Made by a program: the position numbers and the translations under genes. From Deltaproteobacteria bacterium (lineage in GTDB: Bacteria > Myxococcota > Kuafuiibacteriia > Kuafuiibacteriales > Kuafuiibacteriaceae), in assembly GCA_040218735.1 (NCBI GenBank), contig JAVJQW010000049.1, forward strand, positions 192,001-256,000: DNA of 64,000 nucleotides, written 5' to 3'. The notes below the pieces were generated by a model. The model ran no database searches. It was not told the origin of the DNA and saw nothing but the letters and a program-made list of their open reading frames with translations. Below, one piece after another: positions 51,943 to 62,770 of this stretch. Position 1 is the first letter of the stretch, and each line of letters begins with the position of its first letter.

Positions 51943-53874
51943 ATGAAGACCGGTGCTGCATTCGTAGGTTTCCTCTTTTCCGCAGGAGTCGGATTTGCCG
52001 TCGGCTGGGCCGTCGGCTCCGGTTCGGGCGGCCCGTCCGGTGGTGGCGGCGGTACGATGGCGCCCGGCGCCAAGGCCGCAGACGCCTCGGCCCTCCCGGT
52101 CGGTGACTCCTACGTCAAGGGTCCCAACGACGCCCTCGTGACGCTGATCGAGTTCTCGGACTTCGAGTGCCCGTTCTGCTCGCGCGTGAACCCCACGATC
52201 AAGCAGATCCAGGACACGTACGGCAAAGACGTCCGGATCGTGTTCAAGCACAACCCCCTGCCGTTCCATAAGAACGCGCCGCTCGCGTCCGAGTACGCGC
52301 TCGCCGCGGGTGAGCAGGGCAAGTTCTGGGAGATGCACGACAAGCTGTTCGCCAACCAAAAGGCGCTGCTCGAGCCGCAGCTCAAGGAGTACGCGGCGCA
52401 GCTCGGCCTCGACCAGGCCAAGATCGACGCGTTCATCGCGAGCGGGAAGGGCAAGAAGGCCATCGCGGATGACCAGGCTCTCGCGTCGAAGGTCGGCGCG
52501 CGCGGTACGCCGAACTTCTTCGTCAACGGTGCGCAGGTCACGGGCGCGCAGCCCTTCGACAACTTCAAGAAGGTGATCGACGAGCAGATCGCGATCGCGA
52601 AGAAGAAGGTCGCCGCCGGCACGCCGCGCGACAAGGTCTACGCGGCCGTCCTCGCGGAGAACCCGCCGAAACCCGCGCCGCCGCCGCAGCGCCCGCAGGC
52701 CCCGCCGGCGACCCGTCAGAAGGTCTCGCTCTCGGACGCGACGCCCCAAAAGGGCGGCAAGATGCCGCTCGTCACGATCGTGGAGTTCTCGGACTTCGAG
52801 TGCCCCTTCTGCTCTCGGGTGAACCCGACGCTCGCGCAGGTGATGAAGGAGTACGGCGACAAGGTGCAGATTCGCTTCCGTCACCAGCCGCTGCCGTTCC
52901 ACAAGCGCGCGATGCCCGCCGCCAAGGCGTCCCTCGCGGCGCACAAGCAGGGCAAGTTCTGGGAGATGCACGACAAGCTGTTCGCCAACCAGAAGGCGCT
53001 CCAGGACGCGGACCTCGAGAAGTACGCCAAGGAGATCGGCCTCAACGTCACGCGCTTCAAGGCGGACATGAACAGCGACGCGATCACCAAGCAGGTCGCG
53101 GCCGACCAGGCCGACGCCGGCAAGTGGGGCGCGCGCGGTACGCCGACGCTCTTCGTCAACGGCGTCCCGGTGCGCGGCGCGCAGCCGTTCGCGGCGTTCA
53201 AGACGGTCATCGACAAGGAGATCGAGCTCGCCAACAAGCTCCTCAAGGAGGGTGTGAAGAAGGCGGACCTGCACGCGGAGATCATCAAGCGTGAGGCCGG
53301 CAAGGAGGTCGCGGGCGCCGCGCCCGGCGCCGCGAAGCCGGCCGCCCCGGCGAAGCCGCAGGACGTGAAGCTCGGCCGCGCGCCGATCGTCGGCAACAAG
53401 AACGCGCCGGTGAAGGTCGTCCTCTGGTCGGACTTCGAGTGCCCCTTCTGTGGCCGCGTGAACCCCTCGATCGAGCAGATCAAGAAGGAGTACGGCAACA
53501 AGGTGGTCGTCGCGTTCAAGCACTTCCCGCTGCCGTTCCACAAGAACGCGACCCCGGCGGCCGTGGCGTCCCTCGCGGCGCACCGTCAGGGCAAGTTCTG
53601 GGAGATGCACGACAAGCTCTTCGAGAACCAGCGTGCGCTGCAGCGCACCGACCTCGAGCGCTACGCCGAGGAGCTCGGGCTGGACATGGCCAAGTTCAAG
53701 AAGGACATGGACGATCCGGAGCTCGAGGCCTGGGTGAAGGCCGATATGGCCGAGGGCTCCAAGGTGGGTGTGAACGGCACGCCGGCCACGTACATCAACG
53801 GCCGCAAGGTCTCCGGCGCCCAGCCGTTCCCGGCCTTCAAGGCCATCATCGACGAAGAGCTCAAGAAGGGCTGA
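51943..53874 (+). CDS. Triple DsbA/thioredoxin-fold protein
   Basis: Three SDFECPFC sites, three QGKFWEMHDKLF, three GTP cis-Pro loops. N-terminal hydrophobic segment and AGGAG RBS. Confidence 0.9.
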   Translation: MKTGAAFVGFLFSAGVGFAVGWAVGSGSGGPSGGGGGTMAPGAKAADASALPVGDSYVKGPNDALVTLIEFSDFECPFCSRVNPTIKQIQDTYGKDVRIVFKHNPLPFHKNAPLASEYALAAGEQGKFWEMHDKLFANQKALLEPQLKEYAAQLGLDQAKIDAFIASGKGKKAIADDQALASKVGARGTPNFFVNGAQVTGAQPFDNFKKVIDEQIAIAKKKVAAGTPRDKVYAAVLAENPPKPAPPPQRPQAPPATRQKVSLSDATPQKGGKMPLVTIVEFSDFECPFCSRVNPTLAQVMKEYGDKVQIRFRHQPLPFHKRAMPAAKASLAAHKQGKFWEMHDKLFANQKALQDADLEKYAKEIGLNVTRFKADMNSDAITKQVAADQADAGKWGARGTPTLFVNGVPVRGAQPFAAFKTVIDKEIELANKLLKEGVKKADLHAEIIKREAGKEVAGAAPGAAKPAAPAKPQDVKLGRAPIVGNKNAPVKVVLWSDFECPFCGRVNPSIEQIKKEYGNKVVVAFKHFPLPFHKNATPAAVASLAAHRQGKFWEMHDKLFENQRALQRTDLERYAEELGLDMAKFKKDMDDPELEAWVKADMAEGSKVGVNGTPATYINGRKVSGAQPFPAFKAIIDEELKKG

Positions 53875-54476: not shown

Positions 54477-58207
<3,731 letters not shown>

Positions 58208-58211
<4 letters not shown>

Positions 58212-59152
58212 GTTCGGGTCCTCTTGCGGGTGGCGTAGAGCGTGATCACGTCGAAGTGCGGAGCACGTCTCTCGGTGTGGCTCACCGCGAGGTGCTCGAC
58301 TTCGAAATCGGCTGCGGCGAGGAGAGTTTCGAGCGCTTCGGGCTCGAATCCCAGATTTTGGTGATCGTAGGCCGCGACGGCGCTGGTGTGCGCGTGCGCC
58401 GCGAGGGTGACGGCGACGAGGCGGGCCCCGTCGCGGGCGACGCGCGCGCACTCGGCGAGCACACGCGCGGGTTCGGTGGCGTAGGTGAGCGCGTTGAGCG
58501 CGAGGACTTGGTCGAAGCTCGCGTCTTCGAAGGGGAGGGCGTGCATGTCGCCCTTCACGAAGCGGACGTGGTCGAAGCGCGCGAGGCGCCGCGTGCCGGC
58601 CTGGGTGACCTCTTCGCTCATGTCGAGGCAGGTCAGCGATCGTGCGCGCGGCGCGACGAGCTCGGCGAGGGCGCCGTCGCCCGAGGCGAGATCGAGGACG
58701 TCGCCGAGCTGCGCGAGCCCGATGAACGCCCGCGCGGTCGACTGCCAGGTGCGGCCGGGGGAGTAGTGCCGCTCCATGTGGCCGGCGACGGTGTCCGCCC
58801 ACGTGCCGCCCCGCTCGCGCGCCGCGAGGGCCTCCTCGAGGCGCCGCTGGTCGACGGCGAGCAGCGGGTCGTCGAGCCGATCGCGAATCGAGCGCCAGAA
58901 CTGGCGCGTGTCCTCGGCCATCCTCTCTTCGCTCGCGGCGTACAGCGTGACCGACTTGCTCTTGCGCGCCTGCACGAGGCCGGCGTCCTTCAGGCGGCCC
59001 AGGTGCGTCGAGACCCGCGACTGCGTGAGCCCCGTGATCCGCACGAGCTCGGCGACGGTCAGCGGCGTGGCCGTCAGCAGGTGCAGCAGCCGCACGCGCG
59101 AAGTGTCCGAGAGCGCGCGGCAGAGCGCGTTGGTGGCTTCGAGCGTGGGCAT
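58208..59152 (-). CDS. ArsR-HTH + SAM-binding methyltransferase-domain regulator (SahR/SamR type)
   Basis: [11 protein letters not shown]...[44 protein letters not shown]. Directly coupled to metH. Confidence 0.85.
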
Positions 59153-59161
59153 CGGACGCAT

Positions 59162-59187
59162 AATCTGCTTATCCGGATAAGCAGATT
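59162..59187. promoter_or_regulatory. Perfect 26-bp palindrome, candidate operator of the ArsR-metH operon
   Basis: AATCTGCTTATCC|GGATAAGCAGATT, lying just downstream (minus-strand sense) of a TACTCT -10 at 59196-59191. Confidence 0.75.
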
Positions 59188-59235: not shown

Positions 59236-60968
59236 TCAGCGTTGGAGCGCGCGGCGCACGGCGGCGACGAGGTCGTCCGGCGCGCCGGAGAGGACGGTGG
59301 GGCCGTCGCCGTCGCGGTCGAAGATCCACAGCACGGGGAGCTGCCGCGCGGACGCGAGGTGCTCACGCGCGACGGGGTGGTCGAAGCTCGGGACCTCCAC
59401 CCGCTTCACGAGCAGGTCGGCGTTCGAATCCGCGAGGGCTCGCAGCCGTCGGTCGAGGTCGTGGCAGGGCGCGCACCACTCCGCCCAGAAGTCGACGACG
59501 GTGACACGCGCGCGGACGGCGACGGTCGCGCGGTCGAAGGTGGCGCCGCCGATTGTGAGGTCGCAGACCCCACGGGAGCCGCAGGCCACCGGCCGGGGCT
59601 CCCGCCCGGTCCGGGTCCCGGTTCCGGTCCGGGTCCCGGAACTGGATCTGGGCACGGACTTCGAACCGGACGCGGACGCGGGCCGCGCATCGGGCTCGAG
59701 CTCGGCACCGGAACCGGGCACGGGCTTCGACCCGGACTCGGATGCGGACTCGGCCTCGGATGCGGACTCGGGCGCGGACTCGGCCTCGGATGCGGACTCG
59801 GATGCGGCCTCGGATGCGGACTCGGCTGCGGACTCGGACGCGGCCGCGGATGCGGACTCGGCCTCGGATGCGGACTCGGCCTCGGACTCGGACTCGGACT
59901 CGGATGCGGACCCGGAGTCGGATGGGGCGCCGCGATGGGGAATCACATCCCCATGCTCATGCGCGTCCCCATGCTCATGCGCGTCCCCATGGTCATGGTC
60001 ATGCCCGTGCTCGTCCGCCTCCGCGCCCCCGAAGGCCACCACCACCGCGGCGCCCACCGTGAAGCGCTCCGACACCTGCGGCCCGTTCACGTCGCGCCAC
60101 ATCGGGAGGCGTCCGTTCACGGCCACGGTCACCCGCTCGTGCACGCGCTGGCTCACGCCGGCGGCGAGCGCCACGATCGTGCCGCCCGAGCGCAGCACCG
60201 TGCCGACCTCCAGCTCCACGGCGCGGCCGCGCGTGGTGCCGTTGATGTCGAGGGACAGCGCCGTGTCGCCGAGGAGCACCAGGCCGCCGGCGCCGTAGCT
60301 GAAGCTGCTCGGGAGCTGCAGCGCGCCCGCCGTCGCGGTCAGCGGCGCGCGCAGGGCGACGTTGCCGCGCAGCGCGAAGCGTTTGTGGACGAACTGCGTC
60401 GCGAACAGCCCGGCGTCCGCCGAGAACGTGCCCGTCCCGACGGAGAGCTGGCTCGGCGCGACGCCGAGGACCCGCAGGGTCTCGGTTCGCCCCGTCGGCA
60501 GCCCGACGCCGAGCGCGAGCGTGACGCTCGGCGTGTACCCGCCGGGCCCCAGCAGCGCCGCGAAGTCGTACCGCCCCGACAGGCGCAGGTCCCCGAAGCC
60601 CGTCGAGCGCGCGGCCGGCGTTCGGTTCGCGCGATAGCGCACCATCCCCGCCGGGAGCTCGGCCTCGACCGACCAGCCCTCGCCGAAGAAGTGCCGCACG
60701 CCCAAGACCGCCACCGAGGACACGACGTTGGCGTTCGCCGGGTCGTCCACGCGAGACGAGCCGTCGAACGAGTCGGGCAGGGTGGAGTAGGCCCACCGCA
60801 ACCCAACTTGCGTCAGATCCTCGGGCAGCGCCTTACGCGTGCCGAGCGCGAGATCGAATGCGGACCCCCCGACCGGGAGGTTGGGGTTCGTTCACGACGC
60901 TCACTGGCCGAACGCCACCGTGGACCACACGAGGAACCACGGCAGCGTCAGCCCGAGAAGGAGCCACC

Positions 60969-60972
<4 letters not shown>
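59236..60972 (-). CDS. Candidate selenoprotein: signal peptide + UxxU + putative outer-membrane beta-barrel + His-rich tract + acidic linker + thioredoxin (WCAPC)
   Basis: TTG at 60972 overlaps the cbs stop and gives MRWLLLGLTLPWFLVWSTVAFGQ*AS*TNPNLPVGG..., continuing in frame into the 59236..60801 track ORF. TGAs are at 60903-60901 and 60894-60892. Confidence 0.72.
59733..60016 (-). repeat. Coding low-complexity repeats (Ser/Ala/Glu 6- and 18-nt repeats; 18-nt His-rich repeat)
   Basis: Iterated CGGACT/CGGATG/CGGCCT units at about 59733-59923, and TCCCCATGCTCATGCGCG tandem copies from 59948 (encoding HGDAHE). Confidence 0.85.
60864..60881 (-). promoter_or_regulatory. Candidate bacterial SECIS hairpin
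   Basis: mRNA ACCUCCC-GGUC-GGGGGGU, a 7-bp stem with one G-U pair. The loop begins 17 nt after the second UGA and 26 nt after the first. Confidence 0.6.
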
Positions 60973-62329
<1,357 letters not shown>

Positions 62330-62333
<4 letters not shown>

Positions 62334-62770
62334 CGCGCGGGGTCTAGCACGAGGACACGTTCGAGGCACTCGCGCATCGACGCGCCGAGCGGTTTGGGAC
62401 GGCGCGTCACGCGGTCGACGTAGACGTGGATGAAACGCCCGTCCGCCGCCGCCGTATCCGCGCCGGCGCGGAACACACCGACCTCGTAATGCACGCTGCT
62501 GTTCCCGATCCGCGTGACCCGCACGCCGACGTCCACGGATTCGGGGAACGCGACGGGTTCGTGGTAGCGGCACGACGTCTCGACCACGAGCCCGATCGAA
62601 TCCCCCTCGTGGATGTCGAGCACCCCCTCCTCGATCAGGTAGCGGTTCACCGCCGTGTCGAAGAACGCGTAGTACACGACGTTGTTGACGTGCCCGTAGA
62701 CGTCGTTGTCGGCCCACCGCGTCGCGACGGTCGTGAACCAGCGGTAGCTGTCCCGCGTCGGTCGCATCAC
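62330..62770 (-). CDS. Acyl-CoA thioesterase (4HBT/hotdog family)
   Basis: [42 protein letters not shown]. Confidence 0.9.

Follow-up and report, generated by a model that had tools for sequence, protein, structure and literature searches.

A predicted double-selenocysteine outer-membrane barrel with a tethered thioredoxin in a Myxococcota genome

The window analysed here is a stretch of 64,000 nucleotides (nt) from a deltaproteobacterial genome of the phylum Myxococcota (assembly GCA_040218735.1, contig JAVJQW010000049.1, positions 192,001 to 256,000). We conclude that positions 59236-60972 of its minus strand very probably form one intact gene, which would be expressed by the mechanism proposed below and would encode an exported, 578-residue protein with two selenocysteines (Sec, U), an outer-membrane beta-barrel and a thioredoxin domain. 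Judged from comparative sequence data, the product is almost certainly a genuine double-Sec protein of this architecture. When TGA is read as U, 578 codons are open from a TTG at 60972 to the stop at 59236-59238, and the translation runs (M)RWLLLGLTLPWFLVWSTVAFG-Q-U-A-S-U-T-N-P and on through an uninterrupted frame. The two in-frame TGAs are codon 24 (60903-60901) and codon 27 (60894-60892), and are thus spaced as in a CxxC motif (x, any residue). The TTG (60972-60970) overlaps the TGA stop (60971-60969) of the upstream PALP and CBS-domain gene (60969-62717), a coupling that is particular to this window and not common to the other loci. The listing of open reading frames (ORFs) under genetic code table 11 shows only the tail of the gene, 59236-60801, as 521 amino acids with a TTG start in the same frame and no signal peptide. 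An earlier note on this DNA had described the TTG overlapping the cbs TGA, the signal peptide, Q-U-A-S-U in CxxC spacing and the 578-residue frame, and had taken the 521-residue ORF as the downstream part of that frame, lacking a signal peptide; each of these points could be retraced in the sequence. The parts of the gene are as follows.

60970..60972, minus strand: TTG start, overlapping the upstream stop (TTGA); there is no in-frame ATG, GTG or TTG in the 14 codons upstream.
60907..60972, minus strand: signal peptide, codons 1-22, ending A-F-G before Q23; orthologues end AFGQ, AFGA or AYGQ there.
60901..60903, minus strand: predicted first Sec codon (UGA), codon 24; the aligned residue is U in 15 gene copies and C in the CxxU and CxxC forms.
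60892..60894, minus strand: predicted second Sec codon (UGA), codon 27, the position that remains U in CxxU forms.
60855..60890, minus strand: predicted selenocysteine insertion sequence (SECIS) element, columns 20-55 in the alignment of UxxU sequences, structure from RNAalifold; upper stem-loop 60864-60881, 7 base pairs (bp), loop GGUC.
60887-60890 paired with 60855-60858, minus strand: lower 4-bp helix of the SECIS.
60817..60906, minus strand: mature N-terminal segment, Q-U-A-S-U-T-NPNLPVGGSAFD..., before the first barrel strand; its placement in the structural model is of low confidence.
60028..60816, minus strand: predicted outer-membrane beta-barrel domain, mature residues about 31-293 (AlphaFold2, AF2, with a predicted local distance difference test score, pLDDT, mostly >90; Foldseek).
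59569..60027, minus strand: disordered linker (pLDDT <50), a His/Asp/Glu-rich stretch followed by a low-complexity Ser/Glu/Ala repeat.
59239..59568, minus strand: C-terminal thioredoxin domain (PF00085), with the cysteines of WCAPC at 59473-59475 and 59464-59466.
59236..59238, minus strand: true stop TGA, without SECIS-like context; this end agrees with the thioredoxin ends of orthologues.

We searched whole genomes for homologues with stop codons read through, covering 20 genomes of the order and a sample of 401 genomes of the phylum. The gene was found in 4/20 and 16/401 of these, respectively, and in all 16 phylum loci its N-terminal motif sits directly after the signal peptide. The motif is UxxU in five holders (the genome of the window, G003, G002, G142 and G127), UU in one (G012, at a locus of 47% GC), CxxU in five, CxxC in three and a distant CxxCxC in two. 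A scan of metagenomes yielded 8 loci with 9 genes, all of them UxxU, and included tandem paralogues on a single contig (L120:1536 and L120:3443, plus strand), both UxxU with the same hairpin. A further scan of genome contigs kept 80 loci, most of which were unrelated thioredoxins; two were read (L038 and L039), and one of them, L039 from a metagenome-assembled genome, carries UxxU. Counted together, other genomes and metagenomes supply 15 gene copies, with 13 distinct 81-nt sequences, in which UxxU stands behind a signal peptide with the same spacing; their protein identity is 32-43%. The flanks are conserved as protein on both sides, with the signal peptide upstream of the Sec site and an NPxL...G..D motif downstream. 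By sequence comparison, such conservation of paired in-frame TGAs is far beyond chance. The homologue search that the earlier note had proposed thus found a conserved signal peptide followed, at the aligned positions, by C-x-x-C, C-x-x-U, U-x-x-U or U-U. Distant barrels of the superfamily (L035 and L036; P0100 and P0146) also begin their mature part with Cys clusters, namely CxxCxC, CGC and CC, and an N-terminal thiol cluster may, on these sequences, be a wider feature of a subset of these channels.

We next considered how the UGAs could be recoded. In an ungapped alignment of the 13 distinct UxxU sequences (81 nt), RNAalifold returned a 7-bp stem with the loop GGUC plus a 4-bp lower helix, the same structure as had first been drawn by inspection. 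The upper stem is 97.8% paired, and the unpaired cells all come from L122, whose hairpin forms in a shifted register. Two pairs of the upper stem show compensatory changes: 33-42 (C-G in 6 sequences, U-A in 5, G-C in 1) and 30-45 (C-G in 11, U-A in 1). The covariation score and the percentage of paired cells were reached by 0/500 shuffles, and partner columns that were slid out of register pair at 58% or less. The hairpin falls in the NLPVGGS codons and has a minimum free energy (MFE) of -9.8 to -11.8 kcal/mol in 13/13 UxxU sequences; its loop is 17 nt downstream of the second UGA and 26 nt downstream of the first. The bacterial SECIS (bSECIS) model, as given in the legend to Fig. 2 of a 2026 review (PMC13188914), places the loop 16-37 nt from the UGA. 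Since both distances lie within this range, a single hairpin plausibly serves both codons, and for both of them the element agrees with all four published bSECIS features: a 4-nt loop starting with G, a 7-bp stem, the distance and the MFE. It resembles the bSECIS consensus and the formate dehydrogenase elements of E. coli in the same respects, but differs from them in that one element stands behind two UGAs. For the UGAs of the UU relative, the distances to the loop are 26 and 29 nt. In the CxxU genes, a stem of 6 bp with a loop of 3 nt (GGC in four, GUC in one) stands at the same distance. No common hairpin is formed by the three CxxC genes, in which these third-codon positions vary freely. 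A scan of 60700-61050 against Rfam at E <= 10 gave no family match. One public sequencing run (X3) also contains two short contigs of foreign origin, 322 and 744 bases long, whose match to the window is confined to the SECIS region (60851-60894); this shows that other organisms of that sample conserve the element at the nucleotide level.

The genome of the window (11.6 Mb in 70 contigs, 96.5% complete) contains the machinery for Sec incorporation. A tRNA-Sec was detected at 70.4 bits (gathering score 47) and was also called by ARAGORN as tRNA-SeC with anticodon tca, and selA (493 bits), selB (341 bits) and selD (326 bits) all score above their curated cut-offs; the check on these genes that the earlier note had called for found all four. 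The selD gene (L018, G000:C18:152317-153240, minus strand) has one in-frame TGA within the motif SGGUAAK, and by its sequence is itself a predicted selenoprotein. About 11 nt beyond that TGA stands a hairpin with GGU in its loop, which resembles the hairpin of the double-Sec gene. Among holders of the gene, selA was found in 5/5 genomes with UxxU or UU forms, above the cut-off in 4 and in four fragments in G003, in 4/5 holders of CxxU forms (the exception, G342, is 89% complete) and in 2/2 genomes with the distant CxxCxC forms; no selA match was found in any of the 3 CxxC genomes (0/3). The pieces of selA in G003 (G003:C16:99439-100205 and G003:C22:13-564) could reflect assembly frameshifts or a decaying gene.

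Sequence errors at the two TGAs were checked against contigs of public runs. Contigs from 4 public runs (4 studies) each cover 60700-61100 in one piece, and both TGAs are unchanged in all of them; one of these runs is near-identical to the window and may be its source sample. The run contigs differ only at 60754, 60856, 60883, 60916, 60978 and 60990, and two of these six differences are synonymous third-position changes adjoining the hairpin. The TGAs are not assembly errors, and the TGC or TGT that the earlier note had named as grounds for doubt was seen in none of the four. Taken together, the homologues, the Sec machinery and the run contigs support its reading of a UASU selenoprotein, as does the covarying SECIS, of which it had made no mention.

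The same gene is misread in public protein collections. A library of 1.84 billion representative proteins was searched, and 142 of them matched at E <= 1e-3. For the 35 strongest matches (E <= 1e-30) the alignment never extends upstream of query residue 29 (0/35), and 9/35 of these closest hits begin at query residue 29 with their own residue 2; those that were read begin M-NPNLPVGGSA, which indicates that gene callers restarted just past the second TGA. Only 14/142 hits reach the Sec site, of which 9 have CxxC, 1 has W-x-x-W, 2 have CGC or CC and 2 lack Cys. The W-x-x-W entry is the public record P0087, which prints W-S-A-W at the UxxU site; its source probably translated TGA as Trp. The annotation error is systematic, in that none of the 35 closest public protein clusters holds the true N-terminus, and as a consequence the databases show the family as cytoplasmic-looking thioredoxin proteins without a signal peptide.

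We then asked what kind of protein carries the Sec pair. Its only Pfam match is thioredoxin, PF00085, at residues 478-564 (30.5 bits, cut-off 23.5), and NCBIfam 20.0 matches nothing in the first 320 residues of the window protein or of any of 54 relatives. An AF2 model of the mature protein, made with a 54-row alignment, has a mean pLDDT of 78, with a confident barrel at about residues 31-293, a confident thioredoxin fold at 447-556 (>90) and a disordered linker between them. Foldseek matched the barrel to FapF (5o67, E 1.6e-14) and to the COG4313 channel 4rl8_C (template modelling score, TM, 0.83; root mean square deviation 3.0; 281 columns). The model and these matches indicate a 12-strand barrel of the COG4313/FapF type. 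The thioredoxin Pfam family is matched by 50/54 relatives, W477, C478 and C481 of the WCxPC active site are at least 90% conserved in 54 sequences, and the closest PDB matches of the domain by sequence are classical thioredoxins. Some relatives match the Pfam families AhpC-TSA or Redoxin; as every NCBIfam hit falls on the C-terminal thioredoxin, we assume that these do so as well. The C-terminal thioredoxin is present in every UxxU, UU, CxxU and CxxC locus that was read to the end; some CxxC proteins from databases and the distant CxxCxC forms consist of the barrel only. At about 59611-59631, just before the thioredoxin, I-G-G-A-T-F-D (mature residues 448-454) repeats the G-G-x-S/T-F motif of the V-G-G-S-A-F-D that follows the Sec pair, a recurrence seen in the UxxU and UU forms that were read and in none of the Cys forms that were read.

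The linker between barrel and thioredoxin differs between Sec and Cys forms. Counting His in this segment, we found 9 in the window protein, together with 33 Asp and Glu. At least three linker His are present in 6/6 UxxU and UU loci and in 31/34 relatives with N-terminally truncated calls (the exceptions have 0, 0 and 1), and none in 4/4 CxxU rows and 10/10 Cys-form rows. The linkers are rich in Asp and Glu as well, a sequence pattern that suggests possible metal binding in the double-Sec subfamily. The Ser/Glu/Ala repeat, at about 59735-59925, makes the linker of the window protein long (161 residues, versus 24-149 in the other His-rich rows) and draws spurious NCBIfam hits to serine-rich adhesins.

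We compared the protein with known selenoproteins and channels. Table 1 of the 2026 review, with 119 prokaryotic selenoprotein families, has no entry with this barrel (PMC13188914). The earlier note had not recognised the architecture among described selenoprotein families, and it does stand outside them so far as that table and the lack of any NCBIfam model on the N-terminal part indicate. Full-text searches found no paper linking COG4313 or Phenol_MetA_deg to selenium, and a search for outer-membrane selenoproteins returned unrelated papers only. Neither the family nor its architecture seems to have been described before, although supplements might list it under a different name; the proposed recoding mechanism is ordinary. 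UxxU is listed for a Prx-like thiol:disulfide oxidoreductase (PF00578), for the NF041115 metal-binding protein and for the FmdB family, and a vicinal C/U-x-x-C/U motif typically marks a redox or metal site (PMC13188914). The window protein shares with these known UxxU selenoproteins two Sec in CxxC spacing, presumably one downstream SECIS and a presumed redox or metal role. In them, however, the motif lies inside soluble thioredoxin-fold or metal-binding domains, whereas here it forms the first residues of a mature barrel protein whose thioredoxin domain retains ordinary cysteines. The eukaryotic SelL family is a further UxxU selenoprotein. At the Sec site, neither the window protein nor its 54 relatives gave an NCBIfam match to the PF00578 Prx-like, NF041115, TIGR02605, NF049945 or NF041027 families. 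The last two of these are the listed outer-membrane selenoproteins, a TonB-dependent receptor of FCYXU type (NF049945) and the GSU2204 barrel of MtrB/PioB type (NF041027) (PMC13188914). Like the protein described here they are Sec-containing outer-membrane barrels, but they belong to other barrel families, have a single Sec, and lack both a thioredoxin and an N-terminal UxxU.

The nearest structural parallels are Pput2725 (COG4313, PDB 4rl8) and FapF (5o65, 5o67), which share the barrel fold. In Pput2725, a channel of Pseudomonas putida, the barrel lumen is occluded by the first ~14 residues, which fold into it from the periplasmic side, and COG4313 channels have been linked to the uptake of hydrophobic compounds (PMC4493636). 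Pput2725 too has a short N-terminal segment before the first strand; by the text of its paper, which mentions no cysteines, it has no thioredoxin fusion and no selenocysteine (PMC4493636). The corresponding segment here takes the place of that lumen-occluding N-terminus and starts with the Sec pair. A second parallel is with DsbD and TlpA relays, which likewise combine a thioredoxin-fold module with a vicinal target of the dithiol type. The thioredoxin domain matches the NCBIfam models of DsbE in 35/54 relatives, TlpA in 26/54 and DsbD in 9/54, weakly and always far below the curated cut-offs, and differs from DsbD and TlpA in being by sequence a classical thioredoxin of cytoplasmic type that is fused to an outer-membrane barrel.

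Our proposal for the gene is that SelB with Sec-tRNA would read both UGAs as selenocysteine, directed by the single hairpin, and that cleavage of the signal peptide would leave a mature protein starting Q-U-A-S-U. As in Pput2725, the N-terminal segment would then lie at the barrel's periplasmic mouth or inside it, with the selenol/diselenide pair as the working site. The tethered periplasmic thioredoxin would cycle this pair between a diselenide and two selenols, and the reduced selenols may bind or pass a soft metal or relay electrons. In outer-membrane barrels with an even number of strands, both termini face the periplasm; the Sec pair, the His/Asp tether and the thioredoxin could therefore meet there or at the mouth of the lumen. 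Whether the thioredoxin acts on the UxxU pair at all seems to us evenly poised. In the double-Sec subfamily the His/Asp-rich tether suggests a site for metal ions, which would capture them, let them pass or detoxify them at the outer membrane, although we offer metal handling as the physiological role only tentatively and lean against it. More speculative still is a selenol-based outer-membrane conduit, in which a Sec pair on the plug of a 12-strand barrel would be recharged by the tethered thioredoxin and would carry reducing power outward or a soft metal or chalcogen inward. The His/Asp tether would assist in the double-Sec forms, and the cargo could include selenium itself; no dedicated prokaryotic selenium uptake system is known (2026 review, PMC13188914). 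We regard this conduit as rather doubtful.

Two alternatives deny that selenium is involved. If the TGAs were nonsense codons in a pseudogene, or lay upstream of the real start, the product would be the 521-residue ORF from 60801, as in the table-11 listing and in public calls for nearly all close relatives. Such a product would lack the signal peptide that an outer-membrane barrel needs. It would leave the codons between the second TGA and 60801 outside the protein, even though they are conserved as protein (NPNLPVGGSAFD...ALPEDLTQ, in relatives with 32-43% overall identity), and it is at odds with 15 gene copies that keep both TGAs and the signal peptide, and with other relatives that have Cys at the same positions. 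The comparative data contradict it, and we consider it barely credible. The UGAs might instead be read as Trp or Cys, through near-cognate tRNAs or reassignment of TGA. Low-level read-through of UGA does exist in bacteria, and P0087 prints W at both positions. But TGA also ends both this gene and the upstream one, so it has not been reassigned; a covarying hairpin that fits the bSECIS model stands at the right distance and is absent from the CxxC forms; and genomes with CxxC forms gave no selA match, in contrast to those with TGA forms, which have selA. Decoding as Trp or Cys is accordingly very improbable, and pseudogene, downstream start and TGA reassignment were all rejected on these grounds.

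Other alternatives accept the Sec pair and assign it a different task. It may be an electron relay rather than a metal site. In a DsbD-like conduit across the outer membrane, the periplasmic thioredoxin would hand electrons to a luminal Sec pair, which would pass them to a substrate in the outer membrane or outside the cell, for instance disulfides, polysulfide, or species of selenium or tellurium. The thioredoxin fusion is common to the UxxU, UU, CxxU and CxxC forms, so that redox chemistry is their common denominator, and the His-rich tether is not shared by all of them. In the same direction point weak matches of the thioredoxin domains to the model of the DsbD-fusion-like selenoprotein TsoB (22/54) and to that of DsbD (9/54), and the luminal N-terminus of Pput2725 (PMC4493636). 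However, no substrate, electron donor or conserved partner is evident, the N-terminus is placed with low confidence in the model, and the His/Asp-rich tether of the double-Sec forms would be left unexplained; as it stands, a pure relay is rather unlikely. It is also conceivable that the Sec pair is a structural diselenide, stapling the plug of a passive channel for hydrophobic molecules, a role that has been proposed for other proteins of COG4313. The likeness in fold to 4rl8 would fit, as would the link of COG4313 channels to hydrophobic-compound uptake (PMC4493636). Yet a static cross-link would hardly warrant the cost of two Sec residues or a fused thioredoxin, and vicinal C/U-x-x-C/U motifs are typical of redox or metal sites (PMC13188914). 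We therefore think a staple decidedly unlikely.

Several observations weigh against our reading of a double-Sec barrel-thioredoxin protein, or against parts of it. The gene is patchy, being present in 3/19 other genomes of the family, and a genome of the same genus (G011, 75% complete) gave no match to it. The match between Sec forms and selA is imperfect: G003 holds UxxU with a fragmented selA, and G342 holds CxxU with no selA match. Related sequences without any structure can exceed covariation controls of the kind used here, and the hairpin was tested on the same sequences from which it was drawn; we consequently rely more on the contrast between Sec and Cys forms and on the compensatory changes, located as these are at synonymous codon positions. 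The reading also asks one hairpin to serve two UGAs 9 nt apart, which its position in the sequence plausibly allows. As to structure, mature residues 1-15 have a pLDDT <50 in the AF2 model, such that the plug position is argued by analogy with Pput2725 alone. The window protein has no match to Pfam PF13557 at E <= 1, and only 27/54 relatives match that family at E <= 0.01, and for want of this match we describe the protein as a distant structural relative of COG4313 channels and not as a filed member. No conserved partner gene that could favour one of the proposed roles emerged among 44 ORFs around 11 loci. Finally, none of the public runs that hold the stretch is an RNA run.

The gene's neighbours in the window, the PALP and CBS-domain gene upstream and an ArsR-methyltransferase gene and metH downstream, are not common to the other loci, and a Cytochrome_P460 gene lies near 2 loci only. 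A perfect 26-base palindrome at 59162-59187, AT-rich within a GC-rich genome, abuts the ATG (59161) of the gene for the ArsR-type helix-turn-helix (HTH)-SAM methyltransferase (58208-59161), which is followed by a B12-dependent methionine synthase (54477-58802). From its sequence and position, the palindrome looks like an operator for a methionine-cycle regulator, possibly one akin to SahR. Elsewhere in the window, 51943-53874 (plus strand) encodes a 643-residue protein with three tandem DsbA/Thioredoxin_4 domains.

Taken together, these findings add an uncatalogued family to the prokaryotic selenoproteome, one that would have its Sec pair at an exported N-terminus, an outer-membrane barrel as carrier and a thioredoxin built in. 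The natural series of UxxU, UU, CxxU and CxxC forms offers a test bed for how one hairpin serves two UGAs at different distances, and also bears on what selenium adds over sulfur at an outer-membrane site. If the idea of a plug or relay is true, the family would represent a new way of conducting redox or metal chemistry at the outer membrane; and the selenol-based conduit, if it exists, would stand as the outer-membrane equivalent of DsbD-type relays and as the first channel with selenocysteine-dependent gate chemistry.

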